From NCBI GenBank assembly GCA_028700115.1, contig JAQVTI010000001.1, positions 107,798-171,797 of the forward strand: a stretch of 64,000 bases of DNA, given 5' to 3'. A model generated the notes under the pieces. It did not search any database. It saw nothing but the letters and a program-made list of their open reading frames with translations, and was not told the origin of the DNA. Below are positions 4,372-64,000 of the stretch, one piece after another (the stretch's first letter is position 1; every line of letters starts with the position of its first letter). The stretch is from Candidatus Iainarchaeum sp. (GTDB lineage Archaea > Iainarchaeota > Iainarchaeia > Iainarchaeales > CSSED10-239). The translations under genes and the position numbers were made by a program.

Positions 4372-4443
4372 GGGTCTGTAGCATAGCGGATAGTGCAATT
4401 GGCTTCGGACCAATAGGTCGTGGGTTCGAATCCCACCAGATCC
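4372..4443 (+). tRNA. tRNA-Arg (anticodon TCG)
   Basis: Hand-folded cloverleaf. Acceptor GGGTCTG/CAGATCC with a G3:U70 wobble. D-arm GCAT-AGCGGATAG-GTGC. Anticodon stem ATTGG/CCAAT with loop CTTCGGA. T-arm GTGGG-TTCGAAT-CCCAC. No encoded CCA. Confidence 0.8.
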
Positions 4444-4449
4444 TTATTT

Positions 4450-5112
4450 TTAAATTTCTTTTTCTTCTAAAATATCAAATAAAATCATCTTTGTTTTAAT
4501 ATTTTTAGAAATTAATTCTTTTTTAAACATTTCAGGAGTTTTGTTAAGAAGTGGAAAAGTTCCAAAATGCATAGGAATTACAAAATCTGATTCTAAAAGA
4601 GTACAAGCATATGCAGCTTCTCTAGGACCCATATTATAATATCCATCAATTGGAAGAATACTAATTTTAGGAGAATAAAGATCTTTAATAATTTTCATAT
4701 CATAAAAAACTCCAGTATCTCCTGCAAAATAAATAGATTCATCTCCAAAAGTAATTACAAACCCAATAGCTACACCTTTATTTGAAGAATGATCTGCTTT
4801 TACAAATGTAAAAGAAATATCTTTATAAATAATTGTACCCCCAATGTTTCCTCCTAAAACACAAACAGCATATTTTGATAAAAATTCTGCTAAATCAAAA
4901 ATAGTAATCACACTTGCACCACAAGATTTTGCAATATCTATAGTATCTCCTAAATGGTCTTTATGATCATGGGTAACTAATATAACGTCTGGTTTTATTT
5001 CCAAAGGATTAATAGAAATATTTGGATTATTTGATATAAAAGGATCTGTTAAAATTTTAACTCCATTAATAGTTATTAAAAAACAAGAATGCCCTAAAAA
5101 TTTTAATTTCAT
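4450..5112 (-). CDS. metallo-beta-lactamase fold metal-dependent hydrolase (UPF0173-like)
   Basis: HDHKDHLGD metal-binding motif. MKLKFLGHSCFLI start typical of the MBL superfamily. Confidence 0.65.
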   Translation of the reverse strand: MKLKFLGHSCFLITINGVKILTDPFISNNPNISINPLEIKPDVILVTHDHKDHLGDTIDIAKSCGASVITIFDLAEFLSKYAVCVLGGNIGGTIIYKDISFTFVKADHSSNKGVAIGFVITFGDESIYFAGDTGVFYDMKIIKDLYSPKISILPIDGYYNMGPREAAYACTLLESDFVIPMHFGTFPLLNKTPEMFKKELISKNIKTKMILFDILEEKEI

Positions 5113-6419: not shown

Positions 6420-7274
6420 ATGATTAAAATGAAAAAAGTTGATTTACATACACACACATATTTTTCAGATGGATTATTAAGCCCAAAACAATTAATTTCA
6501 CTTGCTAATAATAAAAAAATTTCAGCAATATCAATTACAGACCATGATACAATAGATGGACTTTTAGAAGGAAAAAAAGAAGCAATTAAAAAAAACATTG
6601 AATTTATAAATGGAGTTGAATTTTTTTCAATAGAAACAGAGATATTAGGATATTTATTTGATGAAAAAAATTCAGCACTTATTAATTTTCTAGAAAAACA
6701 AATATTACAAAAAGAAAAATACGCTATTAAAAAAATAGAACAATTAAATAATTTAAACATAGATATAGAAATTGAAGAAGTTTATGAGAAAATAAAGCCA
6801 GGAAGAGTAGTTACAACTACACATATAGCACAAATACTCTTAGAAAAAGGATATGTTAAAGAAATACAAGAGGCATTTAAAAAATATATAAATAAAGAAA
6901 AAGTTATACTTAAAGATCCACCAGAAAATGCAAAAAAAATAATAAAACTTATAAAAAATGCAGGAGGAGTTTCTGTTTTACCACATCCATGGTATTTAAA
7001 AGATTTCCAAAAAGAAAATTTAGAATATTTTTTAATAAAATTAGAAAAATATGGATTAAATGGAATAGAAACTACAGGATATATCCCAAATGAAAATATT
7101 TTATTTGAAGGTAAAAATTTAATTAAAAGAATTAAAGAAATATCAAGAGAATTAAAACTTGTAGAAACAGGGGGATCAGATTTTCATTCTGAAAAAATAC
7201 ATCCTCACAATATTTTAGGGAAATATAATATTTCTTATACAAAACTAAATGAACTTAAAAAAAAAATCAAATAA
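6420..7274 (+). CDS. PHP-domain metal-dependent phosphoesterase
   Basis: VDLHTHTYFSDG N-terminal PHP motif. Later His residues (LPHPWY, GGSDFHS). Confidence 0.65.
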   Translation: MIKMKKVDLHTHTYFSDGLLSPKQLISLANNKKISAISITDHDTIDGLLEGKKEAIKKNIEFINGVEFFSIETEILGYLFDEKNSALINFLEKQILQKEKYAIKKIEQLNNLNIDIEIEEVYEKIKPGRVVTTTHIAQILLEKGYVKEIQEAFKKYINKEKVILKDPPENAKKIIKLIKNAGGVSVLPHPWYLKDFQKENLEYFLIKLEKYGLNGIETTGYIPNENILFEGKNLIKRIKEISRELKLVETGGSDFHSEKIHPHNILGKYNISYTKLNELKKKIK

Positions 7275-8060: not shown

Positions 8061-8166
8061 TATTTTTTTATTTTTTTAAAGTTTTTATTTTTTTAAAGTT
8101 TTTATTTTTTTAAAGTTTTTATTTTTTTAAAGTTTTTATTTTTTTAAAGTTTTTATTTTTTTAAAA
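8061..8166. repeat. 17-bp tandem repeat (aaagtttttattttttt) about 5-6 copies, spanning the 3' end of the CPA2 antiporter gene
   Basis: Perfect period-17 copies start at 8078, 8095, 8112, 8129 and 8146, with partial copies on each side. The period is not a multiple of 3. Confidence 0.9.
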
Positions 8167-12764: not shown

Positions 12765-13486
12765 TGTAAATCACCTTCTAATGGATACTTTTCAAGAATT
12801 GCTTTCTTTTGAAGTTCATAAACTTTTTCAGCACCCTTTACTCCTACAGAAATTATTTTTTTCCAATCTTTTTGATTTACAAAACCATCCATTTGCATTA
12901 AAACAATTTCATTTTGTGGCATTAAAACCCCAATTGCTGTGTCTACAGCATCAAAAGTATCTTCTTCATCTTTTGTTAAATCTAAAACAAATTCTCCATT
13001 TGCTCTTCCTGAAGCAACAGCACTAACAAGACCTTTCATTGGAAGACCTGCATCAGCACACGCTAAAGATGCAGCTGTTAATGCAGCAGCTCTTGTTCCA
13101 GCATCCGCAGAAAGAATTATTGAATTTATATCAATAACAGTATTTGGAAATTGCTCTAAATCAATTGCTTTTTCTAAAGCAAACCCAGAAACTAAAGAAA
13201 TTTCTTTATCTCTTTTTCCAGGAACTGGATTTTTTCTATCAGATACTGAAAAAGGAGCCATTCTATATCTATAATCAATTACAGCCTTTGTAGAATCTGC
13301 TAAATGTTTTGGAAACATTGGTTTTGGTCCATGAACAGTAGCAATAACTATATTTCTACCCCATTCTAAATAACAGGAACCATCTGCACTTTTTACAACA
13401 CCTAATTTTATATTTATAGGTCTTAATTGATCTATTTGTCTATTATCTAATCTTGTCATATTATCACACTCATATATTTTTCTCAA
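12761..13486 (-). CDS. rrp41: exosome complex exonuclease Rrp41 (RNase PH domain)
   Basis: LRPINIKLGVVKSADGSCYLEWGRNIVIATVHGP, plus phosphate-binding GTRAAAL-type AGTRAAAL. Confidence 0.85.
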   Translation of the reverse strand: MRKIYECDNMTRLDNRQIDQLRPINIKLGVVKSADGSCYLEWGRNIVIATVHGPKPMFPKHLADSTKAVIDYRYRMAPFSVSDRKNPVPGKRDKEISLVSGFALEKAIDLEQFPNTVIDINSIILSADAGTRAAALTAASLACADAGLPMKGLVSAVASGRANGEFVLDLTKDEEDTFDAVDTAIGVLMPQNEIVLMQMDGFVNQKDWKKIISVGVKGAEKVYELQKKAILEKYPLEGDLQ

Positions 13487-14081
13487 TATATTCTTTTATT
13501 GAATTTGTAAGGTTTGATTTTTGAGAATTATTTATAATCAAATTAATTGCATTTTCTAAAATTAAATAATTATCACAATTATACCAAATCCAACCATTTT
13601 TACCAATAACAATATTGGCTTTAAGTAAATTTTTAAATAAATTAAGCATAGAATCATTTTTACCAATAAGCCTTGGAACTTTTACAGGAGATGCATTAAA
13701 AAGTCTTCCTTTTGGTAAAATATTTATATGATCTATATCAATAGTATCATTATCATTAACACTAGAAAGCCTTGCAAAAATAATTTGCCCTTTTTTAAGT
13801 TCTTTTTTAATCATTGATTTTGGTAAAAAAGTATCTGTAAAAGAATTATATTCTAAAACATAACCATTTGGAAGATCATCTTTTACAATCAAAATAATCC
13901 CATCATTAACATTTGGCTTATAAATCCCATTTAAAGCAACAACTGAAATATAATCTGTTGATTCAGATAATAACCCAACAACTTGACTATAAACTTTATT
14001 ATTTAAAAGAAAAACATTTGATCCTAATTTTTTTCGTTGATCAGTTAGAAACTCTCCTGGGATTACAATTTTTTTATCCAT
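13470..14081 (-). CDS. rrp4: exosome RNA-binding subunit Rrp4 (S1 + KH)
   Basis: KH GxxG motif IVIGKNGWIW near the C-terminus. S1-like middle domain. Shorter than usual at 203 aa. Confidence 0.65.
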   Translation of the reverse strand: MDKKIVIPGEFLTDQRKKLGSNVFLLNNKVYSQVVGLLSESTDYISVVALNGIYKPNVNDGIILIVKDDLPNGYVLEYNSFTDTFLPKSMIKKELKKGQIIFARLSSVNDNDTIDIDHINILPKGRLFNASPVKVPRLIGKNDSMLNLFKNLLKANIVIGKNGWIWYNCDNYLILENAINLIINNSQKSNLTNSIKEYIEKNI

Positions 14082-26038: not shown

Positions 26039-26109
26039 AGCCAAGGTAGGGAGTCGAACCCCACTCTTCCGCTCTGCAGGCGGAGGCATAACCGATCTGC
26101 CACCTTGGC
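26039..26109 (-). tRNA. tRNA-Cys (anticodon GCA)
   Basis: Hand-folded from the reverse complement. Acceptor GCCAAGG/CCTTGGC with discriminator U (a Cys identity element). Anticodon stem TCCGC/GCGGA with loop CTGCAGA. T-arm TGGGG-TTCGACT-CCCTA. Confidence 0.75.
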
Positions 26110-43044: not shown

Positions 43045-44299
43045 CTGCACAACTTTTACCCCAAGCAGTTGCCATTGCTTGACAAAGTGCGACATTACCG
43101 TCTGTAGATGACCTATAAAACATATCACTTGTATCAGTTGTAATCGAAACATTCCATGAAGATAAATTTCTATTCATTTTAGTTCTACCAAACATATAAT
43201 ACATAGTAGATACATTTGAAACATCCCAATTAGATAAATCTTGGTTAAAATTACTTGCATATGCGAACATATTACGCATATTATTAATATTTGAAACATC
43301 CCAATTATTCATATTAGAAACATAAGATACATTTGAACAATTTCTAAAAAAACCTTCTAAACTAGTAACCCCATTTAAATCTAAAATATCAGTTGCAGTT
43401 ATACTAGTTAAATTACTACAACCATAAAATGCATTTGTACTAAATTTTGGGTTAAACCCCCCCCAATGAGATATATTTGTAATTTTAGGATAATCTCCAG
43501 AAGCATTAAAAGACCAACCTTGAATAGTTCCAAACATATTTACATCATAAATTCCTGATGAAGAATAAGTATGTAATTTATCAGAATCATCATAAGAAGT
43601 TATTTCTGAAGTAGTCCCATCTCCCCAATCTACTGTAAAATCATAATTACCTTCAGAAACTAAAGGTAAAGATATTTGATTAGCTTCACTAGATCCAGTA
43701 GAAGTTTTTGTAGTATCCCAAGTTGAAGAAAAATAAGGAATTATACAATCTTGACCACATGAAGAAATTGTTTCATCTCCATTACAAGTTCCATCTCCAC
43801 AATAAGGTGCATTATCACATGAAACAAGACTTGCTCCTAAATAACTTACAGGAATAGAAATATATTTACCATCATTAGTTTTTAATTCTAAAATAAATTC
43901 TTTTGAAGGAATACATATTATATCTAATTGATTACTTCTATTTGGATTAATAACTAAAGGAGTTTCTAAAGTATATTCTGTGTTTATAAAATTTGTATTT
44001 TCTGCGGTTGTAGAAATTAATTTATATGCAACAACATTTAAATCTTTATTAAAATTGTTATTTTCTAAAACAACTTTAGAATAATCCCCAGACATACTTT
44101 CATAAACAGATCTGTATTTTATAAACCCATCTAAATCTGATTTATCATAAGTAACTACAGAAGATTCATCTAGATTAGATGTAGTAAAATCTTTTGAAAA
44201 AGAAACAATTCCTGCAATTAAAACAACTGAAACTAAAACAATTAAAACAGTTGCAATTAATGGAGAAATTGCTTTTTTATAAAAATCATTGCCAAACAT
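43025..44299 (-). CDS. surface protein with archaeal class III (pilin-type) signal peptide, Cys-rich module and C-terminal DUF285/BspA-like repeats
   Basis: Start taken at MFGNDFYKKA-ISPLIATVLIVLVSVVLIAG (archaeal pilin N-domain-like). The longer track ORF begins at 44383. CGDGTCNGDETISSCGQDC module. Repeats NFNQDLSNWDVSNVSTMYYMF / NLSSWNVS..DMF typical of DUF285. Confidence 0.55.
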   Translation of the reverse strand: MFGNDFYKKAISPLIATVLIVLVSVVLIAGIVSFSKDFTTSNLDESSVVTYDKSDLDGFIKYRSVYESMSGDYSKVVLENNNFNKDLNVVAYKLISTTAENTNFINTEYTLETPLVINPNRSNQLDIICIPSKEFILELKTNDGKYISIPVSYLGASLVSCDNAPYCGDGTCNGDETISSCGQDCIIPYFSSTWDTTKTSTGSSEANQISLPLVSEGNYDFTVDWGDGTTSEITSYDDSDKLHTYSSSGIYDVNMFGTIQGWSFNASGDYPKITNISHWGGFNPKFSTNAFYGCSNLTSITATDILDLNGVTSLEGFFRNCSNVSYVSNMNNWDVSNINNMRNMFAYASNFNQDLSNWDVSNVSTMYYMFGRTKMNRNLSSWNVSITTDTSDMFYRSSTDGNVALCQAMATAWGKSCAAIGCTC

Positions 44300-52710: not shown

Positions 52711-55020
52711 ATGAAGATAGGAAAATATACTGTTGGAAACTACATAGTTACTCAAGAAGGAAATAAAAAAAAATTAGTTTTTGACTGTAGAAACTGTCCA
52801 TATAATACATCAATTGCAGAAGATGCAAGATGTAGATACCATGTTTTAAAAACATTAGAAACAATAGATGCAGATGAAATAATATTAGCAGAAGTATATG
52901 AAAGAAGCTATGATAAAATACAAACAAAATTTTTAAAAGAAATGGTAAATCTTGGGATGGATTTTGAAAATAAAGCTGTTTGGGTTTCAGAACATTTAAA
53001 TATTAATGATATTGATTGCGATCAATGTTACCCACAAAGACATAATAATATTTTAAAATTTGCAAGAGAACTAATCTCATATGACCCAATAGCATCATAT
53101 ATAACTTTATTAAAAGAAATAGAAAACAATAAAACAAGAGAAGAAGACTCAAAAGGAAAAGAATGCGAAAAATGCTTTACTGCAAATATAAATCATTTAT
53201 TAAATTTAAAAAAACAATATGAAAAAACTGAGTTTATTAGAAGAATCAAACCAATTTTAGTAAAAAGCAAAGATCTTTCTGACTTAACAGATATTTATAG
53301 AACCATTTTTGAAGTAGAAATAAAACCATCTTTTATTGGATCTAAAATATCTTTTGAAAATATGGATAAATTAGAACTAATAGACGAATACCAAGTATTA
53401 AACACAAATGTACAAATATTTAAACATCCAGAAAAAATAGAATATATGTATATGATTAACCCCCCAGAGTACACACTTTCTCCAGACCATTATTTTGTAC
53501 TTACAAAAACAAAAGAAACTGTTGCAAACTATGCTCCTGGAACAGTTACTCTTACAACAGGGGATTCAACTAGAAAATACTTTCAAAGAATATATCAAAG
53601 CACAATAACAGATATTGCACGAAAATTTGCAATAAACATAAATGCAGAAGACATTTTTGCACTTTCTGAAATAGTTACAAGATATACAATTGGATATGGA
53701 ATTTTAGAATTACTACTTTCAGACAGACAAGTAACAGATGTTTATCTAGACTCACCACTTGGTTCAAAACCAATCTATTTAGTTCACTCTAAATATGGAC
53801 AATGCCAAACAAACATACAATACCCAGAAAGCGATGCTGAAAGCTTTATTGGAAAAATTAGAGCAATGTCTGGAAGACCATTTGATGATGCACATCCAAT
53901 TTTAGACTTTGATTTACCAGATCTTAACACAAGAATTGCAATTATTGGAAGACCTCTTGCAACTGATGGGATTGCATTTGCATTCAGACTTCATAAAGAC
54001 ACTCCTTGGACTCTACCACAGTTAATAAATGTAAAATCACTTAACTCACTTGCAGCAGGTATGCTTTCATTTTTTATAGATAATAATTCAACTATGCTAA
54101 TTGCAGGATCACGTGGTGCAGGAAAAACTTCTTTAATGACTTCTTTAATGCTTGAGATTCTACAAAACAGTAGAATCATAGTTCAAGAAGACACATTAGA
54201 ACTTCCTGTAATGTACATGAAAGATATTGGGTTTAATGCCCAAAGACTAAAAACAAGATCTGCAATTGGTGGAACAGGAGATCTAGCAACATCTGAAGTT
54301 AAACCAGAAGATGCTCTAAGAACAGCTTTAAGACTTGGTGACTCTGCTTTAATTGTTGGGGAAGTTAGAAGTGTTGAGGCTAAAGTTTTATATGAAGCCA
54401 TGAGAATTGGTGCAGCTGGAAATGTTGTTATGGGAACAATACATGCTGATTCAGCTTATGCAGTTTGGGATAGAGTTGTAAATGATCTAGAAGTTCCAAC
54501 AACTTCTTTTAAGGCAACTGATATTGTAGTTGTTGCAAAGCCTATAAGATTTAAAGGATCTTTAAAAAACCATAGAAGAGTAGTTCAAATCACAGAAGTT
54601 AGAAAGCATTGGAATAATGATCCAGATGCAGAAGGCGGACTTTTAAACTTAATGGAATATGATGCTTCAAAAGATACACTTGTTTTAAATGAAGATGCTC
54701 TAAAAGACTCTGAGATGTTTACAAAGATAAGTAAACTTTCTGGTATGAAGATAGAAGAGATTTGGGAGAACATTAACTTAAGGTCAAAAGAGAAACAGTT
54801 CCAAGTAGATTTTGCAAAAGAAAAAGATGTGATTGAAATTTTAGAGGCAGAACACACTGTTTTTGCACACAACAAGCTTCTTATCATGAAAGAAGAATAT
54901 TTGGAGTATTATAATGATAAGCTAGATTATAATGATTTATACGAAAAATGGAAAAAATGGTATACAGAAAGCTTTGCTCCAAGAGTAATTAAAAGAATAA
55001 AAGATAATAGAATTGAATAA
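52711..55020 (+). CDS. FlaI/VirB11/TadA-family secretion ATPase (type IV pilus/archaellum assembly) with about 250 aa Cys-rich N-terminal extension
   Basis: Walker A GSRGAGKTS. Asp/Glu box IIVQEDTLEL. His box region TIHADSAY. N-terminal CRNCPYN...CRYH, CDQCYPQRH and CEKCF suggest a Zn-binding module. Confidence 0.65.
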   Translation: MKIGKYTVGNYIVTQEGNKKKLVFDCRNCPYNTSIAEDARCRYHVLKTLETIDADEIILAEVYERSYDKIQTKFLKEMVNLGMDFENKAVWVSEHLNINDIDCDQCYPQRHNNILKFARELISYDPIASYITLLKEIENNKTREEDSKGKECEKCFTANINHLLNLKKQYEKTEFIRRIKPILVKSKDLSDLTDIYRTIFEVEIKPSFIGSKISFENMDKLELIDEYQVLNTNVQIFKHPEKIEYMYMINPPEYTLSPDHYFVLTKTKETVANYAPGTVTLTTGDSTRKYFQRIYQSTITDIARKFAININAEDIFALSEIVTRYTIGYGILELLLSDRQVTDVYLDSPLGSKPIYLVHSKYGQCQTNIQYPESDAESFIGKIRAMSGRPFDDAHPILDFDLPDLNTRIAIIGRPLATDGIAFAFRLHKDTPWTLPQLINVKSLNSLAAGMLSFFIDNNSTMLIAGSRGAGKTSLMTSLMLEILQNSRIIVQEDTLELPVMYMKDIGFNAQRLKTRSAIGGTGDLATSEVKPEDALRTALRLGDSALIVGEVRSVEAKVLYEAMRIGAAGNVVMGTIHADSAYAVWDRVVNDLEVPTTSFKATDIVVVAKPIRFKGSLKNHRRVVQITEVRKHWNNDPDAEGGLLNLMEYDASKDTLVLNEDALKDSEMFTKISKLSGMKIEEIWENINLRSKEKQFQVDFAKEKDVIEILEAEHTVFAHNKLLIMKEEYLEYYNDKLDYNDLYEKWKKWYTESFAPRVIKRIKDNRIE

Positions 55021-55021
55021 A

Positions 55022-55222
55022 TTATTCTATTATCTTCCATTGTCCTTTTTTTGTAGAACCAATTCTCTTTAATTTACCTTTTTCTTTTAATTTAGATATA
55101 TTCCACTCAACACCCCTAACAGATAATCCAACTTTTAAAGATAATTCTTTTACAGTAATATTAGGATTTTTCTTAATTAATAAAATTATTTTATCCACAG
55201 TTTCTTCCACAGTCTCTTCCAC
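55022..55222 (-). CDS. small winged-helix DNA-binding protein
   Basis: ITVKELSLKVGLSVRGVEWNISKLKEKGKLKRI HTH/wing. N-terminus encoded by a 12-bp tandem repeat (EETVEETV). Confidence 0.45.
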   Translation of the reverse strand: MEETVEETVDKIILLIKKNPNITVKELSLKVGLSVRGVEWNISKLKEKGKLKRIGSTKKGQWKIIE

Positions 55223-55377
55223 AGTCTCTTCAAAAATTATTTAAAAACAAATAAAATATATATAATTTTCTAAAAGTCAACTAATTAATTAGCAAACTAA
55301 TTAAATAATATAGAATAATTTATAAATATAATAAACAATATTAATATATTATTTAAAAAAACAAAACAAGAGAAAAC

Positions 55378-56004
55378 ATGAAATTATTTAATAGAGTTAG
55401 AAAACCTAAAAGAGAGACACCTCATAAGATAATAGAAAAAACATATAAAATAAATGAACTTGAAGCAGCTTTTACAAAAGAGAAAGGCAAAAACTCAAAA
55501 TTAAAAGAAATAAATGCAGTTAGAAGAAAAGATTCAGGTAAATTTGTTTTAGGAGATATTAAAGATAAATTTTACCACACACATATTCTAGATAGTCTAA
55601 AAGAAAGAAATAAATTAATACCTAGTCCAGAAGACATAGTTACATCTAGTTTACTTAAAAGATATAAGAATGTAAAAAACAATGGTGTTTTTCTAATACA
55701 CAAAGGTAAAGAAATTGGAAAAATACATTTTAGATTAAGTGATAAATTTATTAAAGATATTAGAGAAGGAACAGAGAGAGCAAGTAAGACTAATAAAGAT
55801 ATTAATAAGGTTGATTTTTTTAATGCATTTCTAAAACTAAGAATAAGTAATATTTATTCTTTTAATATTTTAAAAGATAAAATGACTTTAGAAAAACAAG
55901 TTAAGATAATTAATGAACTTAAAAAAGAAGGTATACAAATAAAATATAAAGCAATGCCTGGATATAAGTTTAATGAAAAAACTATGCTTTTTGAAAAAGC
56001 ATAA
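55378..56004 (+). CDS. hypothetical basic protein
   Basis: ORF only. Its last 7 codons lie inside the left copy of a 53-bp direct repeat. Confidence 0.3.
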   Translation: MKLFNRVRKPKRETPHKIIEKTYKINELEAAFTKEKGKNSKLKEINAVRRKDSGKFVLGDIKDKFYHTHILDSLKERNKLIPSPEDIVTSSLLKRYKNVKNNGVFLIHKGKEIGKIHFRLSDKFIKDIREGTERASKTNKDINKVDFFNAFLKLRISNIYSFNILKDKMTLEKQVKIINELKKEGIQIKYKAMPGYKFNEKTMLFEKA

Positions 56005-56028
56005 AACTAATTTTATTTTTATAAAAAA
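55976..56028. repeat. left copy of 53-bp perfect direct repeat (aaaaaactatgctttttgaaaaagcataaaactaattttatttttataaaaaa)
   Basis: Identical to 57485..57537. The pair brackets the AAA-ATPase gene. Confidence 0.9.
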
Positions 56029-57362
56029 CTTTTTGGTTTTTCTAACATAGCTAAAAACATACATACAGGTATAACTAAATTATTATTTAGATTAATATCT
56101 GCAGGTGCAACTAAATTTTTTGAAAGCATAATATATTCATCAACATCTTCTATAAAATTAGGTTTTTTAAATTTATTTCTATATTTAACTTCAATTGCTT
56201 TATTTTTAAAAACAAAATCAATTTCTTTTTGATCTACATTATAATATTTTAATTCTAAATTATAAATATTTTGTAAATGACTACCAACTGTATTTTCTAC
56301 AAGCTTACCTAAAAAAGTATCATTAAATAAAAGAGATCTACTTTCTTCAAAAGAATCTAAATTATTTGAATAGTTTAATAAAGAATGAATAATAAAAGGA
56401 TCTTTAATATAAAATTTCTTTAAAAGATCTCTTGCAGATTCTTTTATTTCAAAAATAATTAATAATTCTTTTAATTCATTTAAATATTTTTTAATAGTAT
56501 CTATAGAATAACCTGTTTTTTCACTAATAGTTGTATATTTTAAAGAACCAGTTAAAGATTCAATTAAAACTTTTAATATTTCAATAGATTTTGTTTTATC
56601 CATTTTTTCAAATATTTTTTGAATAATATCTTCATAATATTTTTCAGAAATTGAATTATTTTTAAAATAAGAGTTTATAGTTTCTGGAAAACCACCTGTT
56701 AATAAATAAATATTAAAATATTTATTAATTTCATCAAAATAAGATTCTATATTTAAAAATTTACTAAGTATATCTTCATTAGATAAATTTAAATTAATTT
56801 CAGACTTAACTAAAAGGTTATATAAACTTAAATTATCAGTTTTAGTTATATTTAAAAGAAATTGCCTAAAAGTTAAAGAAGACATAACTTTTATTTCTTC
56901 AGATCTTCCAATTAATGCTTGTTTACATTCTTCAATTTTTCTAGGATCAGAACCAGTAACTACTAAACAAATATCTTTTAATAAATTAGAATCTTTTAAA
57001 GCTTTTAAAAAGGCACAACTATTTTGTAAAGATTGAATCTCATCAAATAAAATAATTTTAATAGGATATAAATTAATTATTTTTTCCATTTGCCTAAATA
57101 GTTCTTTTTCTTTTAAATTTAATAAAATATCAAAATTAAAATAAATTACTTCCTTTGAATTAGTAGAATAAGCAATTTGTTTTAAATAAATTGTTTTTCC
57201 TACTCTTCTAGGTCCTTTAATTAAATTTATAGTCCCAGGAGTAAGATTTATAGAATCTCTAGTTATAATATATTTATTTTTAGATAAATTATCTATATCT
57301 GGATCTTTTTTTCCTGAAAACCAGGGATTTTGACTTAAAACAACATTCCAATCTAAAGGCAT
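56019..57362 (-). CDS. AAA+ ATPase of the archaeal COG1373 / DUF4143 type
   Basis: Walker A GPRRVGKT, Walker B ILFDEIQ. C-terminal DUF4143-like region. Confidence 0.6.
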   Translation of the reverse strand: MPLDWNVVLSQNPWFSGKKDPDIDNLSKNKYIITRDSINLTPGTINLIKGPRRVGKTIYLKQIAYSTNSKEVIYFNFDILLNLKEKELFRQMEKIINLYPIKIILFDEIQSLQNSCAFLKALKDSNLLKDICLVVTGSDPRKIEECKQALIGRSEEIKVMSSLTFRQFLLNITKTDNLSLYNLLVKSEINLNLSNEDILSKFLNIESYFDEINKYFNIYLLTGGFPETINSYFKNNSISEKYYEDIIQKIFEKMDKTKSIEILKVLIESLTGSLKYTTISEKTGYSIDTIKKYLNELKELLIIFEIKESARDLLKKFYIKDPFIIHSLLNYSNNLDSFEESRSLLFNDTFLGKLVENTVGSHLQNIYNLELKYYNVDQKEIDFVFKNKAIEVKYRNKFKKPNFIEDVDEYIMLSKNLVAPADINLNNNLVIPVCMFLAMLEKPKSFL

Positions 57363-57484
57363 ATATTAATTATACACCTATAAGTTTATAAATTTATCTA
57401 AAAGTCAACTAGTTAACTAGTTGAAATTATCTAAAAGTCAACTAATTAACTAATTAACTAATTAACTAATTAATTAAATAATAA

Positions 57485-57537
57485 AAAAAACTATGCTTTT
57501 TGAAAAAGCATAAAACTAATTTTATTTTTATAAAAAA
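57485..57537. repeat. right copy of 53-bp perfect direct repeat
   Basis: See left copy. Preceded by operator-like motifs at 57397..57475. Confidence 0.9.
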
Positions 57538-57538
57538 A

Positions 57539-58114
57539 TCATACATTAATATAGTCTTTATGAATATACTCTTTTACAAATAATAAAACATCTTTATTTG
57601 TAAATTGATTTATACTCTTTTTATGATCTTCAAAAAACAGTTCATAACAATATCTAAGATATGAAGGATTAAGAGTTTTTACTTGGTTAAAAAATTTAAC
57701 TTTTAACTCTTTAGAAATATCTAATTCTTTTATTTTTTTATCTAATTTATATTTTAAGATATTTCCTTGTCTATCAGATCTATTAACATAGATTTCTGCT
57801 TCACGTTTTTCTATTTGTGCATATTTTAAAAAATGTTCAACAATTTTTATATATTCTTTTTGAGTTAGTTTTTTCATTAACTCTTTTGTAGTCATGTTTT
57901 TTTTATCTCTTAAAAGAATATTATGCATATGAAAAACAATATCAGAATCTGATAAAAATTTATCTTTTTGTTTAATTAGTTCTCTTAGTTTAGGGTCTAC
58001 TACTTTTTGATTTAGTTTCTTTGTAGACCTATTTCTAGTTATTTTAAAACTTTGTCTTTTTTCCTTAAATGTATAAGGTTTATTTGTTTTTGGATTTATT
58101 TTTCTAAAAGGCAT
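57539..58114 (-). CDS. hypothetical basic protein
   Basis: ORF only. Starts 2 nt after the right direct-repeat copy. Confidence 0.3.
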   Translation of the reverse strand: MPFRKINPKTNKPYTFKEKRQSFKITRNRSTKKLNQKVVDPKLRELIKQKDKFLSDSDIVFHMHNILLRDKKNMTTKELMKKLTQKEYIKIVEHFLKYAQIEKREAEIYVNRSDRQGNILKYKLDKKIKELDISKELKVKFFNQVKTLNPSYLRYCYELFFEDHKKSINQFTNKDVLLFVKEYIHKDYINV

Positions 58115-58216
58115 AAATAATTAACTCTTTTATATTATAACAAATATATAAAAGATAAATAAATTTATAAATAGTAATTTTTATTAAAAAAATAAATTTT
58201 TTTAAAGAAAATTCAT

Positions 58217-58960
58217 TTAATTAATTTTATTTAAAATAAACTTACAAATAAGTTTAAAATCTAATCTATATTTTTTTAAAATATAATGATTTGTTGAATT
58301 ATTATACAATTTTATTTTATAATCATCATTTATTATATTATTTAATTTATTAATAACTATAGATTTATCTTTTATTGGAAAATTATTATCTTTTAGTATA
58401 ACATAGATATCATAAATATCTTTACCTTCATCTCTATTTATAAAAGCTTTAATTTTTTGATAAAATAATTCTTCTAAACTATAAACATTAAAATAAGATA
58501 TATCAAAATCAACAAATCCAGGATAAATTATTTTTTTATTAATATCAGGCATATCTTTATTATTTAATCTAAATTCAAGCATAATTTTATCTTTTTGATT
58601 AATCTCATTAATATACTGAATATCAAATCTAATTGTTTTATTCATGATTCTTGGTTTATTTACAATATAAGATTTCAAATATTTTTTTAAAATTAAATAA
58701 ATATCTTCTTTTAAAATATTTATTTCTTTTTTAGAAAAAATATCAAAATCAATATCTTCAGAAAATCTTTTAAATTTATTAAAATAAACTCTATTTAAAG
58801 AAGTTCCTCCTTTTAATATTATATTATCAAATTTATTCTCTAATAATTTAAATATTTTTGAAATTTCTTTATCTTTTATAATATAATTTGTAGATAATCC
58901 AGTATCTAAACAAATTTTTCTAATAAGTTTTATATCCATTAATTTAATACCACCAATCAA
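58217..58960 (-). CDS. abiEii: AbiEii/AbiGii-family nucleotidyltransferase toxin (type IV TA, DUF1814)
   Basis: IILKGGTSLNRVYFNKFKRFSEDIDFDIF matches the LKGGTAL...RFSEDIDF signature. Confidence 0.65.
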   Translation of the reverse strand: MIGGIKLMDIKLIRKICLDTGLSTNYIIKDKEISKIFKLLENKFDNIILKGGTSLNRVYFNKFKRFSEDIDFDIFSKKEINILKEDIYLILKKYLKSYIVNKPRIMNKTIRFDIQYINEINQKDKIMLEFRLNNKDMPDINKKIIYPGFVDFDISYFNVYSLEELFYQKIKAFINRDEGKDIYDIYVILKDNNFPIKDKSIVINKLNNIINDDYKIKLYNNSTNHYILKKYRLDFKLICKFILNKIN

Positions 58961-59732
58961 TTATATTTTTTTCACCTAAATTATCTTTTAGTTTCCATTT
59001 ATCTATATATTTTGATTTTTTATTATTTATATTTAATAAATAAGTATTAGATTTGTCTTGAGATAATAAATATTTTAAAAAATAATTAGGTATTTTTAAA
59101 TTTGTATTTTTAAGTAAAATATCTAAAATATAGCCAGTAATTTGATTTTGTCTTTTACTAGAGTATTTTTTATAAATTAATAATAATTTATTCCAATTTA
59201 TTTTATTTGAACCTAAATATATAGCTTTAGATAAAATAGAATAACTACCTATATATTTAAATTTATTAAAACAATCAAATATAGTTTTTTCTAAAGAAGA
59301 AATATAAATATTATCTATTCTTATAAAATCATTATAAAAATTAGTATTTATATATTTTAGATTATATTCATATAATTTAATATTTTTAGATTTTTTATTA
59401 GTAGAAATATATATGTTGAAAGGATGGTAATCTATTAAACCATAATAAAATAAAGCAGATGAAAAAGAAATATATCCAGGATATAAATTAGTTGCTATTT
59501 CAAAAAGATCATTTATTGAAAAAATATCTTTTTTAATATAATTATTTTTTTTAAGATTTAATAAATACCCTTTATCTTTTAATTGTTTTAATAAAAAATT
59601 AATCTTATAATTAGAATAATCTTTAAAAGCAGATTTTAAATCATTGTTTTTTAATATATTATTCTTTTTTTTAGAATCTATATAGTTATACAAATAATTT
59701 TCATTATTTGTTAATTGGTTATTTTTTTGCAT
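58944..59732 (-). CDS. abiEi: AbiEi-family antitoxin / transcriptional regulator
   Basis: YPGYISFSSALFYYGLIDYHP matches the AbiEi_4 motif YxSxxSALxxHGL. Overlaps the downstream toxin gene by 17 nt. Confidence 0.6.
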   Translation of the reverse strand: MQKNNQLTNNENYLYNYIDSKKKNNILKNNDLKSAFKDYSNYKINFLLKQLKDKGYLLNLKKNNYIKKDIFSINDLFEIATNLYPGYISFSSALFYYGLIDYHPFNIYISTNKKSKNIKLYEYNLKYINTNFYNDFIRIDNIYISSLEKTIFDCFNKFKYIGSYSILSKAIYLGSNKINWNKLLLIYKKYSSKRQNQITGYILDILLKNTNLKIPNYFLKYLLSQDKSNTYLLNINNKKSKYIDKWKLKDNLGEKNIIDWWY

Positions 59733-59937
59733 ATAACATAATTATATTACATAACCTTTAAAAAATTAACCAAAAAATATTTATTTAAAATATATTAAAA
59801 ATAAATAAAATTTTAAGAAAAAGAATAAGTTTTAGATTTTTAAAATTTTTTTAAAAATAAAAAAAAGAAAAGAAAGAAAAGGAAATAAATCCTTTATCTT
59901 TAACGGTTTAGATTTAATCTATTTTATTTTCAAACAT

Positions 59938-62493
59938 TTACATGTTTTCAATAACGTTGATTAATTCTTTAGCAGCCATTGCAGTGTCTTCAGCTGTCAT
60001 TCCAGCAACAACAATATTACCTTCAGCGTTTTGTCCTAATACATAGTCTCCAGAAGCTGTTAACATAGTATCTAATCCTATATTTTGAGCTAATGTGTTA
60101 ACTAAGTGACCACCAACAATGATTTTGTTTCCTGCTGGGTTTTCGTTATCAAGGTATACTAATTTGTTTGTTGCAACATTCCATGTCATTGGAACAATAG
60201 CATCAGTTGCAGCTCCACCAGATAAAGCAACAGCATCTAATGATACAGATACTCCGTCTTCTGTTTGTTGTTCTCCTTCAGCTGTTAAAGTGAATGTTGA
60301 ACCGTTAATTGATGTTGAAGTACTAGCTCCTCCACCAACGAAGATTTGTCCATATAATTTAGTATCAGGAACAATTGCAGTAAACATACCTCCGTCTACT
60401 TCAGCATATGTACCAAATTCTGTATATCCCCAAGTTAAATCATCAGAATCTTCTTGATTTAGTGTGTAAGTTACAGCATCACCAGTTGTGAAAGCTGAAT
60501 TTCCATTTACAACAAGAACTTGATCAACAACAGCTAAATAAGATGAATCATCTGTATCTACTAAATTTCCAGTTCCAGCATCAATATGAGCTACTACTGA
60601 ATCTTGACCATCATCAACAACAAATTCAAACATAGATTTCATATCAGTACCGTCTGTTAAAACACCTGTAGCAGTTTTACCAACATATGTACCATCACTA
60701 GTTGCAGCAACATCTATTTGTGTATATATATTTTTAATAGTCCAATCTTGAGTAGGACTATCAATAGTACCTTCAATAGATCCTGCAGCACCTTCTTTAA
60801 GACCTAATGCAAATTGAGTAATATCATTTGTTCCAGTTGCACCATCTTCGTTAATATATAAACCATAAGCTAATTTTTCAGATTCATTATTATATAATGG
60901 GATTGTTAAATCTGTAAATGCAGCATCTGTGTAAACAAATTTAGAATTATCTGTATTTGTTGTTTCCCAAGTCCAAACATTAGAAGTTTTTGTTAAGTAA
61001 TCTCCATCATCATCTTCTAATTGAACTGTGAAATAACCAATATCTAAAGCATCATTTGCAGCATTAGGAATTCCACCAACATTGGAATCTTCATTACCAT
61101 ATATAAAACTATCATAAGAACCTACATCTGTAGTAGTATTAAAATCCTCATCAGCTGTATGGAATTCAATGTATAATTTCTTATCATCTAATGTTTGCAT
61201 AGTTGTATAGTTTTCACCATCTCCGTAAGTTCCATCTTCTTCTTCATAAAAGAATACTTTGTGATCGTCGTCAGTAGCATCTATATAAGAAATATATCCA
61301 TCTTCAACAATTACTTCTTTTGATGATTCATTAGTTAAACCTAAAAAGTCAATAGAACCTAAATCAAATGGTAAAACAATAGAGTCATCTACTTTTAAAG
61401 CATCTTCATCTTCCCATTGAACATCTTGATCTTCATTAGTAAATACTATTTTTGTAATAGGATCAGAACCTGTAAAACTAACTTTCCATAATTTATCATC
61501 TATATTTGGGAAATCTTCAATAATTTGTCCACTTTCAAGCTCTATACTTGTACTTGTACCTGAAACAACAGTTACTTTTTTATCATAAACTGTATCTATT
61601 TCTACATTTGATTCTAAATATTCGTTGAATACTGTTTCATAATCTGTAAAAACTTCAGAAGCTAAAATTGCACCATTTTGAGAAATACTTAATTCAACAG
61701 AATAATTATTACTAGATTCTAAAATATCTTCAACAGTGATTGTATATCCGTCAACTTCAAAAGAAGCACCTTCTTCATAAGGAGCTGTATTTTTATTTTG
61801 AACTAAAGTTACAATTCCATTAGAATAGTCTTCAAGAGTATATTCATTACCCATTAAATTAAATTTGAAATCAGGACTACCTTCATCATTAGCACCATTA
61901 TTAATTCCAGGATTAAATTCAAGAGTATATGAAATATCCCCTCTATCAAATGATGCTGTTAAATCAGCTACATCTTTATCTGAATCAAAAGCAACTGTAG
62001 GAGTAATAGTAATACTTTCTTGTACATTTATTTCATCAGTATCAAAAATACTATCATCAACATCTACGTCATAATCTCCTAAAACAGAATAATCTCTGTC
62101 ATCAAGAGTTTCTGTAACACTAGTAGATCCTAATTCCCAATCATCTGTTAACAAACCGTCTCCAGAAATTGTAGATGTTGATTCAGCACCAGCTGTAACA
62201 GTTACACTTTCTAATGCAGCTCCAGCGATTGCGTCACCTGATGTGTAAGCTTTCTTTCCAATAGCAGCAGCTATGTTTCCAGCCCATACAACATCAACTG
62301 GTTGAGCCATAGATCCAACGATTACATTGTAAGCTGGTCCTGTAGCACCAAATAATTGATCTTTTGTTAAGTTGTCTATTCCAGTGTATGTGTCATCTGC
62401 CATGTTAGCAGCAGCAACAGCACCTGCAAATAAAGCAGAAACTGCAAAAACACCTGCACCAGCAACTATTTTCTTCATATTTATATTCTTCAT
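59938..62493 (-). CDS. putative S-layer / major cell-surface protein
   Basis: Sec signal MKKIVAGAGVFAVSALFAGAVAAA. 851 aa, Thr/Asp/Gly/Val-rich with almost no Lys, unlike the K/N/I-rich rest of the window. Local GC clearly higher. Long AT-rich promoter region. Confidence 0.5.
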   Translation of the reverse strand: MKNINMKKIVAGAGVFAVSALFAGAVAAANMADDTYTGIDNLTKDQLFGATGPAYNVIVGSMAQPVDVVWAGNIAAAIGKKAYTSGDAIAGAALESVTVTAGAESTSTISGDGLLTDDWELGSTSVTETLDDRDYSVLGDYDVDVDDSIFDTDEINVQESITITPTVAFDSDKDVADLTASFDRGDISYTLEFNPGINNGANDEGSPDFKFNLMGNEYTLEDYSNGIVTLVQNKNTAPYEEGASFEVDGYTITVEDILESSNNYSVELSISQNGAILASEVFTDYETVFNEYLESNVEIDTVYDKKVTVVSGTSTSIELESGQIIEDFPNIDDKLWKVSFTGSDPITKIVFTNEDQDVQWEDEDALKVDDSIVLPFDLGSIDFLGLTNESSKEVIVEDGYISYIDATDDDHKVFFYEEEDGTYGDGENYTTMQTLDDKKLYIEFHTADEDFNTTTDVGSYDSFIYGNEDSNVGGIPNAANDALDIGYFTVQLEDDDGDYLTKTSNVWTWETTNTDNSKFVYTDAAFTDLTIPLYNNESEKLAYGLYINEDGATGTNDITQFALGLKEGAAGSIEGTIDSPTQDWTIKNIYTQIDVAATSDGTYVGKTATGVLTDGTDMKSMFEFVVDDGQDSVVAHIDAGTGNLVDTDDSSYLAVVDQVLVVNGNSAFTTGDAVTYTLNQEDSDDLTWGYTEFGTYAEVDGGMFTAIVPDTKLYGQIFVGGGASTSTSINGSTFTLTAEGEQQTEDGVSVSLDAVALSGGAATDAIVPMTWNVATNKLVYLDNENPAGNKIIVGGHLVNTLAQNIGLDTMLTASGDYVLGQNAEGNIVVAGMTAEDTAMAAKELINVIENM

Positions 62494-62865: not shown

Positions 62866-63401
62866 TTATTTATCTAGATAAATATCTAGATACATAGGCA
62901 AGGCACCTTTATCTCTTTCTTTTAATATTTTAAATTTAAATTTTTTATAAAAATGAATAGAATCTTTACTTTTGTCCTTATTTCTTTTTACATCTAAAAT
63001 TAAAAATCTACAACCACAAATACTAGATAACTTTTTAGCTACACTATAAGAAATTTCAAGTAACATTGTTCCAAAGCCCATTCTTGAAAAATCATCATCA
63101 ACTGCAAGTCTACCTATCTTTAATGCAGGAATTGCTTTATATTTAACATTTTTTTAAGAAAAAAAGTCTTTAAAGGTTTAGTTAAATTTAAAGAATCAGT
63201 TAATAAAGTAACATAACATACTAAATTATCTTTATAAAATAATAAATAAGTAGTAGATATTTTTTGTTTTTAATTACTTAAAGCATCATCTACTAAAAAA
63301 TCTTTCAAATCTTTCTCATAGGTTTTAAAATTAGTAATAATATCTTTGTCAGTTTTTAAAATAGGTCTAATTTTAATATATTTTAAATTTATTTTTTCCA
63401 T
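62866..63401 (-). pseudogene. GNAT-family acetyltransferase (toxin-like size, about 178 codons) disrupted by two frameshifts in A/T homopolymer runs
   Basis: Three consecutive minus-strand frames: MEKINLKYIKIRPILKTDKD..DDALSN* / KQKISTTYLLFYKDNLVCYVTLLTD..KKMLNIKQFLH* / KNVKYKAIPALKIGRLAVDDDFSRMGFGTMLLE..CRFLILDV..FYKKFKFKIL. Motif A is intact. The frame changes sit near nt 63285 and 63160. Confidence 0.55.
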
Positions 63402-63556
63402 AATTGACTTTCATAAAAAGATCTGTTCTTTTCTGCATTTTTAATAAATGCAACTCTTTCTTTAGAAGGATGCTTTAACTCTTTAGCCCATCCTTTAATA
63501 AACTTATCAGCATCATCCCCTCTTAATACAGGAGTTGCTCTAATTAGTTTAGCCAT
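63389..63556 (-). CDS. small protein (55 aa) upstream of and overlapping the GNAT gene start; possible antitoxin-like partner
   Basis: Manual translation MAKLIRATPVLRGDDADKFIKGWAKELKHPSKERVAFIKNAEKNRSFYESQLWKK. Its stop overlaps the GNAT ATG by 11 nt. Confidence 0.3.
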   Translation of the reverse strand: MAKLIRATPVLRGDDADKFIKGWAKELKHPSKERVAFIKNAEKNRSFYESQLWKK

Positions 63557-63709
63557 ATTTATCACATTTATATAATATATATGTATTTATTAAAACAATT
63601 TATAAGTATTTGTATTACAAATAAAAAAAGAACAAAAAAGAAAGAGAAATAGAATATAAATTTTTAAAAAAAAGAAAATAAAAAAACAGTTTTTAATATT
63701 TTAAAAAAA

Positions 63710-64000
63710 CTATCTCCTTCCACCACTAACTGCATCTTCTATTGTCCAATTAAAATTATTTATAATATAGTCTTTTGCAGTAAGTCCATCTCCAGAAGGA
63801 GTACTATTTCCTGCATCAAAAGATACATTTGATTGTAAAGGCAATTTACTCCAACTAATTAATAAAGAATTATAATTTGAAGAAGATAAAGAAGTAATTG
63901 AAAACATATTTCCCATATCTGTTACATTAGAAACATTCCAAGAAGCTAAATTTTGATCGAAAACCTCATTATTACAAAACATATAATACATATTATTTAC
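63710..64000 (-). CDS. DUF285/BspA-like surface protein, C-terminal part (continues past window end)
   Basis: MYYMFCNNEVFDQNLASWNVSNVTDMGNMF repeats, same family as 43025..44299. Reading frame is open to nt 64000. Confidence 0.5.
   Translation of the reverse strand, partial: VNNMYYMFCNNEVFDQNLASWNVSNVTDMGNMFSITSLSSSNYNSLLISWSKLPLQSNVSFDAGNSTPSGDGLTAKDYIINNFNWTIEDAVSGGRR

Follow-up and report, generated by a model that had tools for sequence, protein, structure and literature searches.

What kind of element occupies positions 55022-59732 of the 64,000-nucleotide (nt) stretch of DNA analysed here (the window), which belongs to Candidatus Iainarchaeum sp. (Iainarchaeota, DPANN)? MCM, an RPA-like protein and then a T2SSE-family ATPase are encoded upstream and a surface-layer (S-layer) protein downstream, and the six genes in between code for a small winged helix-turn-helix (wHTH) protein, two basic ORFans (ORF2 and ORF4), a COG1373/PDC-S01-type ATPase and the AbiEi/AbiEii pair. 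The locus could be one multi-gene system or a collection of genes sharing an address. We consider the second likely: 55022-59732 would be the content of a variable accessory/defence hotspot, in which independent, self-contained gene modules are exchanged by recombination. Read along the minus strand, the order is S-layer gene, AbiEi, AbiEii, ORF4, repeat B2, motifs A3 and A2, ATPase, repeat B1, ORF2 (antisense), motif A1 and wHTH gene (Table 1). A first-pass annotation of the window had listed the six open reading frames (ORFs) between the T2SSE and S-layer genes and had taken them for a candidate accessory or defence island with direct repeats. All six were confirmed at their coordinates, the repeats are real (a 53-nt perfect pair), and the island character holds, since AbiE and PDC-S01 are recognised by PADLOC and the cargo of the interval differs across related lineages. 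The presence/absence differences among relatives that it proposed to look for were also found, in the nearest relative, which lacks the AbiE pair and the wHTH module.

The T2SSE–S-layer interval was compared in about 15 Iainarchaeota-like contigs (compared contigs are labelled L001-L033), and searches with the T2SSE protein, run on species-representative genomes and on JGI metagenomes, brought in further lineages. The nearest relative (L001, an ENA contig) has the gene order of the window all the way from the eIF genes, past MCM, RPA and T2SSE, to the S-layer gene (about 85-88% nt identity). It differs from the window by two clean indels: it lacks 55021-55353 (about 0.33 kb, containing the wHTH gene and A1) and the AbiE segment, so that the sequence upstream of ORF4 there joins directly onto that downstream of the S-layer gene. 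The other three genes, ORF2, ATPase and ORF4, are common to both. A second strain of the window's species (L002, NCBI JAQUYT010000012.1), which is 99.7% identical, keeps the AbiE pair (with a 159-nt deletion, see below), and the wHTH gene is identical in the sister-strain contigs L014 and L015. The T2SSE protein is conserved (73-93% at the amino acid (aa) level) and linked to the hotspot in L001, L004, L006, L007, L017-L021, L025, L026 and L028-L031, and S-layer homologues delimit the interval in L001, L003/L004, L006, L007, L017, L018, L020, L025 and L026. Both anchors bound it in the window, L001, L003/4, L006, L007, L017, L018, L020/26 and L025; L009/10 and L013 have T2SSE on one side, with arrays of cassettes. 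The cargo differs in every related lineage examined (Table 1), and the interval is for that reason a genuine hotspot. Recognised defence cargo comprises AbiE, ATPases of the PDC-S01 type and other AAA_14/DUF4143 or ATPase_2+DUF234 ATPases, RhuM and Bro-N/ORF6N, accompanied by weak, sub-threshold PIN-like and RHH/UPF0175 matches and by ORFans.

The modules appear independent because ATPase orthologues occur without the ORFans (seven lineages), ORF4-like genes occur without the ATPase (L018, and the short contig L033, where the gene lies directly beside T2SSE) and AbiE pairs, at 45-54% aa identity, lie elsewhere in the same hotspot of L007, L013 and L017. Bacterial defence islands and hotspots are bounded by conserved core genes. 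The present interval resembles such hotspots, and those surveyed in Archaea (PMC12988326), in having two conserved anchors and a cargo that varies between close relatives, with known defence genes mixed with ORFans and pseudogenes. Unlike them, it has cell-surface genes of a DPANN archaeon as anchors (S-layer and pilus-type ATPase), contains no integrase or tRNA, and carries mostly single-gene units separated by copies of the 3' ends of anchor genes. The same survey, which covered 7747 archaeal genomes, reports that CRISPR and restriction-modification systems are depleted in DPANN and that AbiE, SoFic and PDCs are enriched there, so the gene content of the island is typical for the lineage (PMC12988326). 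The GC content is 14% in the AbiE genes, 19% in the ATPase and 21% in ORF4, against 30-33% in flanking genes and 22.7% in the whole window; since other 1-kb stretches of the window are also below 19%, low GC alone is weak evidence for an island. No structured RNA was found in the island with Rfam (E <= 1).

Table 1. Coordinates of features in and around the island, followed by the gene content of the corresponding interval in related contigs (K+R, lysine plus arginine; pI, isoelectric point; dN/dS, ratio of nonsynonymous to synonymous substitution rates).
Feature	Position	Strand	Match or remark
T2SSE-family (pilus/secretion) ATPase, 769 aa, left anchor	52711-55020	+	Pfam T2SSE 9.7e-15
wHTH protein, small, stand-alone, 66 aa	55022-55222	-	HTH_24 1.8e-10
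Motif A1, promoter/operator-like module	55246-55309		Upstream of wHTH gene (minus strand); repeat families D1/D3/D9
ORF2, basic ORFan, 208 aa, pI 10.0, K+R 25%	55378-56004	+	dN/dS 0.26 vs L001
Repeat B1, 53 nt	55976-56028		100% identical to B2
COG1373/PDC-S01-type AAA+ ATPase, wHTH, C-terminal PD-(D/E)xK nuclease domain, 447 aa	56019-57362	-	AAA_14 7.2e-20, DUF4143 1.1e-17
Motifs A2 and A3	57382-57475		Upstream of ATPase; TCTAAAAGTCAACTA at 57397 and 57430
Repeat B2, 53 nt	57485-57537		Directly 3' of ORF4 stop; non-coding copy of ORF2 3' end
ORF4, basic ORFan, 191 aa, pI 9.9, K+R 24%, predicted all-helical	57539-58114	-	dN/dS 0.55 vs L001
AbiE indel, about 1.6 kb	58183-59775		Missing from L001
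AbiEii, DUF1814 nucleotidyltransferase toxin, 247 aa	58217-58960	-	PF08843 4.4e-22, 79.6 bits (cutoff 22.5); PADLOC AbiEii 3e-23
AbiEi, antitoxin/autoregulator, 262 aa, first in operon	58944-59732	-	PADLOC AbiEi PDLC02267 6.9e-38
S-layer protein, 851 aa, right anchor	59938-62493	-	S_layer_C 1.4e-12
L003/L004 interval			ATPase orthologue alone, pilin-like gene
L006 interval			ATPase orthologue, three more AAA_14-type ATPases, ORF4-like 207-aa gene, DUF5652, pilin-like gene
L007 interval			ATPase orthologue, NB-ARC-like AAA_14 protein, AbiE pair, Bro-N
L009/L010 interval			ATPase orthologue, second DUF4143 ATPase, RhuM, ORF6N, TrmB-wHTH and DUF6036
L011/L012 interval			At least 5 tandem ATPases
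L013 interval			ATPase orthologue, four more ATPases, AbiE pair, DUF5652
L017 interval			Pseudogenised AbiE pair, weak RHH match
L018 interval			Weak sub-threshold PIN-like and RHH matches, ORF4-like gene, no ATPase gene
L020/L026/L031 interval			ORF2-like 257-aa gene, 64-aa ATPase remnant
L025 interval			ATPase_2+DUF234 protein

In the AbiE pair the antitoxin gene precedes the toxin gene, with an overlap of 17 nt. AbiEii contains the nucleotidyltransferase motifs LKGG-TSLNRVYFNKFKRFSE-DID (KGG-x16-DID, with the conserved Arg at -4), KIKAFINR and an acidic DEGKDIYD, which fit motifs I/II (hG[G/S]...DhD), III (KhxAaxxR) and IV (acidic). These motifs were defined for the AbiEii of S. agalactiae in a source that also gives the antitoxin-first bicistron as the definition of AbiE (PMC3985639). 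AbiEi matches the PADLOC profile from residue 7 to 261 (profile positions 2-251 of 252) and through it shows the COG5340-type two-domain organisation (N-terminal wHTH and C-terminal domain); it has no match in Pfam, and its score against NCBIfam TAA_AbiEi (1e-5, 25 bits) is under the cutoff of 150. Judged at the sequence level, where every feature that defines AbiE is present, the pair is an intact AbiEi/AbiEii. By analogy with bacteria, it would be a type IV toxin-antitoxin/abortive-infection module, recently gained, in which AbiEii would act as a GTP-binding nucleotidyltransferase that arrests growth, and AbiEi would neutralise it and repress the operon through its wHTH. The overlapping antitoxin-first bicistron, the DUF1814 toxin with motifs I-IV and the full-length match of the antitoxin are shared with bacterial AbiE as described by Dy et al. 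2014 (PMC3985639), and so are the small size (1.6 kb) and the mobile-indel behaviour expected of a toxin-antitoxin module. Unlike bacterial AbiE, it is archaeal (DPANN) and extremely AT-rich, it diverges as noted above from the pairs in the same hotspot of relatives, and its antitoxin lies outside Pfam and under the NCBIfam cutoff. To our knowledge, there are no activity data for any archaeal AbiE. Upstream of AbiEi (59733-59775, minus strand), two direct copies of TTATGTWAT lie about 13 nt apart near the start codon and are a candidate AbiEi operator, given that bacterial AbiEi is autoregulatory. In L017, an Iainarchaeum MAG, AbiEii (13222-13930) is broken into three fragments and AbiEi seems intact, an instance of module decay in the same hotspot, and L002 (1-1427) contains, beyond its S-layer gene, a second AbiEii gene together with an MJ0538-family gene.

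The ATPase is the commonest occupant of the hotspot, and it is not obligatory. Seven PADLOC profiles of PDC-S01 match it (best 8.4e-24), and its Walker A (G50/G55/K56) and Walker B (D107/E108) residues do not vary among 16 homologues with identities as low as 30%, and neither do the predicted nuclease residues E356, D382 and E391-V392-K393. It thus combines AAA_14 with Walker A/B, DUF4143 with catalytic residues and a PADLOC profile match, the features by which PDC-S01 is recognised. DUF4143/COG1373 belongs to the PD-(D/E)XK superfamily according to PMC3424549, and PDC-S01 is presented in PMC12988326 as a single-gene candidate, an ATPase fused to a PD-(D/E)xK domain, common in Archaea. On this basis the protein is predicted to be an NTP-driven, DNA-binding nuclease that would act on invading nucleic acid. 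It shares with PDC-S01 the domain order, the Walker A/B and D...ExK residues and the state of a single gene, with promoter-like and terminator-like flanks of its own; unlike PDC-S01 as described, it occupies a conserved position in one particular hotspot, is boxed by long direct repeats, and has up to five or six paralogues arrayed in relatives. Neither hotspot residence nor repeat boxing nor paralogue arrays are mentioned for PDC-S01 in the available portions of the cited literature. Orthologues lie in the same hotspot in eight lineages; in seven of these they are 51-58% identical in aa and stand without ORF2 or ORF4. On longer contigs those of 51-61% aa identity are always beside T2SSE and/or the S-layer gene, in differing company. 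L017, L018 and L025 have no orthologue, and only a 64-aa remnant of it is left in L020, L026 and L031. Compared with L001, the ATPase has a dN/dS of 0.15, within the range of core genes (0.07-0.16), and a synonymous divergence (dS) of 0.17, about 3-fold lower than that of flanking core genes (0.52-0.69 for T2SSE, RPA and MCM). A plateau of about 95% identity between the window and L001 spans roughly 55950-57350.

ORF2 and ORF4 have no family match in Pfam, PADLOC, PHROGs or NCBIfam (sub-threshold noise only). Among 5.8e9 protein clusters, the sole homologue of ORF2 is P0002 (81% aa), at the same position in L001. The only non-self relative of ORF4, in that search and in a profile search of 1.84e9 representatives, is P0004 of L001 (50% aa); its other match, P0003, is its own truncated copy in the sister strain, and a HMMER profile search with the ORF4 alignment over the 1.84e9 representatives gave nothing new. 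Because of their substitution pattern against L001, both are regarded as real coding genes. ORF2 is under purifying selection (dS 0.34), and ORF4 is fast-evolving (dS 0.62) and dispensable in the sister strain: in L002 a 159-nt deletion between short T-rich microhomologies (window about 58104-58268) cuts 17 codons from the end of AbiEii and removes the start codon of ORF4, of which NCBI annotates a 118-aa fragment. The C-terminal 46 residues of ORF4 are nearly invariant between the window and L001, and the remainder is strongly diverged. AlphaFold2 models were poor (predicted local distance difference test, pLDDT, of 46 for ORF2 and 67 for ORF4), and these low-pLDDT models gave no match with E < 0.2 in a Foldseek search against PDB. 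The two proteins were also tried as paralogues of each other and rejected (BLASTP E 2.0, hhalign probability 0.2%). ORF4-like proteins of 189-207 aa, which have an N-terminal MPxxK...TFKEKR motif in common with ORF4, are encoded in the same hotspot of L018, L006 and L033, and their C-terminal block aligns with that of ORF4 over 71 columns (hhalign E 1.8e-4, probability 48%), so that ORF4 and these proteins are probably, on this alignment, a fast-evolving family whose members are independent of the ATPase. ORF2 and the 257-aa protein found at the same position in L020 have only an N-terminal KKPRKET motif in common (E 0.038). ORF2 is convergent to the ATPase, each gene having its own TATA-like upstream region and T-rich terminator, and it is probably co-transcribed with T2SSE in L001, because there it starts 30 nt past the T2SSE stop. 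The basic, helical nature of the two proteins suggests, with low confidence, that they bind nucleic acid.

Direct repeats, B1 and B2, bracket the ATPase. They are the sole exact direct repeat of 25 nt or more, excluding low-complexity sequence, in the window (0 expected from shuffles). B1 spans the 3' ends of two genes, namely the last 9 codons and stop of ORF2 and the last 3 codons and stop of the ATPase, together with a 10-bp hairpin (TATGCTTTTTgAAAAAGCATA) and T-runs. Because the hairpin and the T-runs on both strands lie directly 3' of ORF4, the ATPase and ORF2, B looks like a bidirectional terminator. B1 holds codons of ORF2 and B2 repeats them as non-coding sequence, so ORF2 was the source of the copy that now lies on the far side of the ATPase. 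In L001 the equivalent pair is a 58-nt perfect repeat, both copies of which carry a 6-nt insertion (TAATAT) absent from both window copies; since the insertion is lineage-specific, the copies within a genome evolve in concert. An assembly artefact was rejected as the cause of the repeat-flanked ATPase, since L001 independently has the same order with its own pair; in addition, the long repeat described next is present in two separate assemblies (L003, L004), and sister-strain contigs match at 100% up to the repeats. In other lineages, cassettes are bracketed by 40-430-nt copies of the 3' end of a neighbouring gene. In L019 (11999-12424 and 14323-14748, equivalent to L004 about 4425-4724 and 6749-7048) an exact direct repeat of 369+48 nt flanks the ATPase orthologue; it consists of the T2SSE 3' end and the downstream region, extending further at lower identity, its upstream copy making a 93-aa ORF that is a C-terminal fragment of T2SSE (over 101 residues, 62% aa identity to the T2SSE protein of the window); a 36-aa ORF falls within the copy of the region that covers the 3' end of the pilin-like gene. 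In L011 (560-9077) five AAA_14/DUF4143 ATPase genes each follow a copy, of about 210-240 nt, of the S-layer gene end, composed of the frameshifted last 115 nt or so of that gene, a palindromic hairpin (TTGTAAGTTAATTACTTACAA) and a T/C-rich terminator-like tract. These repeats, of which two subtypes are interleaved along the array, are about 74-98% identical in nt, and the ATPases they separate are 26-42% identical in aa (one pair 65%). Analogous inter-cassette repeats of 40-130 nt occur in L007, L009 and L013; in L009, 40-41-nt repeats box the ATPase and a 41-nt pair boxes RhuM, so repeat-boxing is not confined to ATPases. Empty-site or circle junctions were sought with an exact 28-nt core of repeat B, and the JGI metagenomes, from which this population is apparently missing, contained no match. 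Elsewhere, in L024 (5639-5829 and 7361-7554; also in L032), exact direct repeats of 104, 36 and 31 nt lie about 1.72 kb apart in GC-richer sequence upstream of a distant (56%) T2SSE homologue, maybe as a duplicated gene segment.

Several observations weigh against a hotspot of independent, exchanged modules. ORF2, the ATPase and ORF4 co-occur in both genomes having the ORFans; the ORF2-like gene abuts the ATPase remnant in L020, L026 and L031, and in L006 the orthologue has an ORF4-like gene next to it; lineages whose T2SSE proteins are only 73-81% identical have the orthologous ATPase in the same position; PDC-S01 has no published experimental validation according to PMC12988326; every comparison sequence is a metagenome assembly; and the low dS of the ATPase could partly reflect its composition (19% GC), a cause countered by the high dS of ORF4 at a similar 21% GC. 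The co-occurrence makes a loose functional link possible, and the first-pass annotation had gone further, proposing that the two basic proteins may work with the ATPase. In its strongest form, this would make the three genes one defence system with the basic proteins as sensor or effector partners, which is quite improbable. It would account for the contiguity of three genes common to the only two lineages with ORFans, for the convergent orientation of the 257-aa ORF2-like gene and the 64-aa remnant and for the adjoining 207-aa ORF4-like gene of L006; against it, the ATPase does without either ORFan in seven lineages, and ORF4-like genes do without an ATPase in the interval (L018) or sit beside T2SSE (L033). 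Furthermore, ORF2 is on the opposite strand, probably co-transcribed with T2SSE in L001, a terminator-like repeat separates genes that have promoter-like and terminator-like flanks of their own, ORF4 is 5'-truncated in the 99.7%-identical strain, the dS values of ORF2, ATPase and ORF4 indicate very different rates, and PDC-S01 is defined as a single gene in PMC12988326. The proposed partnership is thus not supported. Conserved synteny across relatives and housekeeping relatives of the hypothetical proteins had been named as what would argue against an island: synteny is indeed conserved for the ATPase but not for the remainder of the island, and neither hypothetical protein matches a housekeeping family.

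The positional constancy of the ATPase also fits a resident, non-defence role, as a gene of the envelope cluster (for example a wHTH regulator or a DNA-maintenance factor, tied to S-layer or pilus genes) that would leave AbiE as the only defence cargo. Orthologues that keep their neighbourhood in seven further lineages, the strong purifying selection on the gene, the wHTH that it contains and the unvalidated defence activity of PDC-S01 (PMC12988326) are all in keeping with this; however, the orthologue is missing or reduced to a remnant in the six contigs named above, divergent paralogues form arrays (L011, L013) that are typical of arms-race genes, the nuclease catalytic residues are kept, and the gene is co-localised with AbiE, RhuM, Bro-N and weak PIN-like matches, so we regard a resident role as unlikely. 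The island might also be what is left of an integrated virus, plasmid or integrative element. Its low GC (14% in the AbiE genes), indels relative to L001 and flanking direct repeats could be read that way, but it has no gene for an integrase, for replication or for a capsid, two IMG/VR scans yielded no relatives of ORF2 and ORF4, neither has a meaningful PHROG match, and content varies gene by gene between relatives, not as a block, which makes such an origin very improbable. Phage_integrase was absent from the precomputed Pfam matches of called genes in the island and in the fetched neighbourhoods of L001-L016 (+/-4-10 kb), L017-L033 and the rest of the window not having been scanned. Integration targeted to a tRNA gene was rejected, since the closest tRNA is at 26109 and none lies within 29 kb.

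Within the preferred reading, that of a hotspot of exchanged modules, the repeats and the divergence pattern suggest, as a hypothesis that is less likely than not, that recombination at anchor-gene-derived repeats is how cassettes come, go and are exchanged, which could proceed by Campbell-type integration and excision of circles or by unequal crossing-over followed by gene conversion. A bolder and tentative proposal, which may be correct although we would not expect it to be, is that the interval is an integron-like, integrase-free platform, in which single defence genes, above all COG1373 ATPase-nucleases, between long direct repeats of the 3' end and terminator of a neighbouring anchor gene are the units, looped out as circles and re-inserted by Campbell-type events into the same or a related genome; alternatively, the ATPase-nuclease itself might promote insertion. 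The platform reading fits the perfect repeats (53 nt in the window, 58 in L001, 369+48 in L019), the five L011 cassettes that each follow a copy of the S-layer gene end, the boxing of both the ATPase and RhuM in L009, the concerted copies and the roughly threefold lower dS of the ATPase. Vibrio superintegrons are chromosomal integron cassette arrays. The L011 array resembles such arrays in that single-gene cassettes, unrelated or very divergent, lie between highly similar repeats of 50-240 nt, and toxin-antitoxin modules are interspersed among the cassettes of the hotspot. Unlike in integrons, no IntI or other tyrosine recombinase was seen here, the repeats are not attC-like, being genome-specific, literal copies of a neighbouring gene's 3' end and terminator, and the window cassettes have their own TATA-like promoters and mixed orientation. 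A true integron was rejected on the lack of an integrase in the regions scanned and of an attC-like shared core in the inter-cassette repeats, the source of which differs between lineages (ORF2 in the window and L001, T2SSE in L004/L019, S-layer in L011). What is new here is the single-gene cassettes boxed by copied 3' ends of neighbouring genes; the AbiE and PDC-S01 cargo is already known and ordinary.

If active exchange lies behind the repeat-boxed cassettes, they would amount to an archaeal counterpart of integron cassette shuffling that needs no recombinase. The genomes of DPANN are tiny and hold few CRISPR or restriction-modification systems, and these archaea have no genetic tools, so that the location and turnover of their defence genes are worth knowing. 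The hotspot, easily recognised from a pilus-type ATPase to an S-layer gene, can be mined for compact archaeal defence genes and offers natural presence/absence contrasts for AbiE and the PDC-S01 family, and its location beside a hypervariable S-layer gene ties surface variation and intracellular defence into one arms-race region. The S-layer/pilus-type ATPase location and the repeat-boxed single-gene cassettes are the aspects worth follow-up.

The ATPase and the wHTH gene have upstream sequences in common. A1 contains the 15-mer TCTAAAAGTCAACTA at 55269-55283, followed by an AT-rich TATA-like sequence, and the A2/A3 region contains, besides its two copies, a perfect 20-nt palindrome (TCAACTAGTTAACTAGTTGA, 57405-57424) and a run of (TAACTAAT)n, with TTTATAAA at 57385-57392, that is, 23-30 nt ahead of the ATPase ATG. 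The placement of A ahead of the ATPase (two copies and the palindrome) and of the wHTH gene (one copy) suggests a putative shared promoter/operator and possible co-regulation, in which the 66-aa wHTH regulator may control its own gene and the ATPase through the 15-nt motif. The three copies of the 15-mer in the window are all at this locus; about 0.6 matches are expected by chance and three were reached in 2 of 100 shuffles, for which reason the motif is weaker evidence than the 53-nt pair. The A2/A3 region is only about 70% identical to L001, against about 95% for the ATPase coding sequence. At the end of L014 (positions 1-93; NCBI JAQUYT010000014.1), beyond window position 57470, 93 nt of much higher GC follow (TAACTAAT)n and encode MSDQRYNLRGVSASKEDVHNAI, which resembles the PurM N-terminus; the contig is probably chimeric at this end, where the low-complexity repeat lies, and the join in the window is supported by its collinearity with L001.

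Between the window and L002, the flanks and the 3' part of the S-layer gene are 98-99.8% identical, and the middle of that gene (60359-62143, against L002 5982-7709) is unrelated at the DNA level in its central and N-terminal regions, the S-layer proteins being about 50% identical overall, which looks like an allele replacement at a hypervariable surface protein adjoining the defence hotspot. Past the S-layer gene (62866-63565 and 63710-63991) there are a short ORF, a 58-aa ORF and a DUF285 gene, all accessory-looking, and the variable region may therefore extend beyond that gene. The two small ORFs have no Pfam match; the L002 counterpart of the short one has a weak GNAT match, and paralogous pieces of the DUF285 gene are found at window positions 43186-44286. 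Far from the island, at 8065-8165, the window also contains a low-complexity tandem repeat with a 17-nt unit, (TTTTTATTTTTTTAAAG)n.

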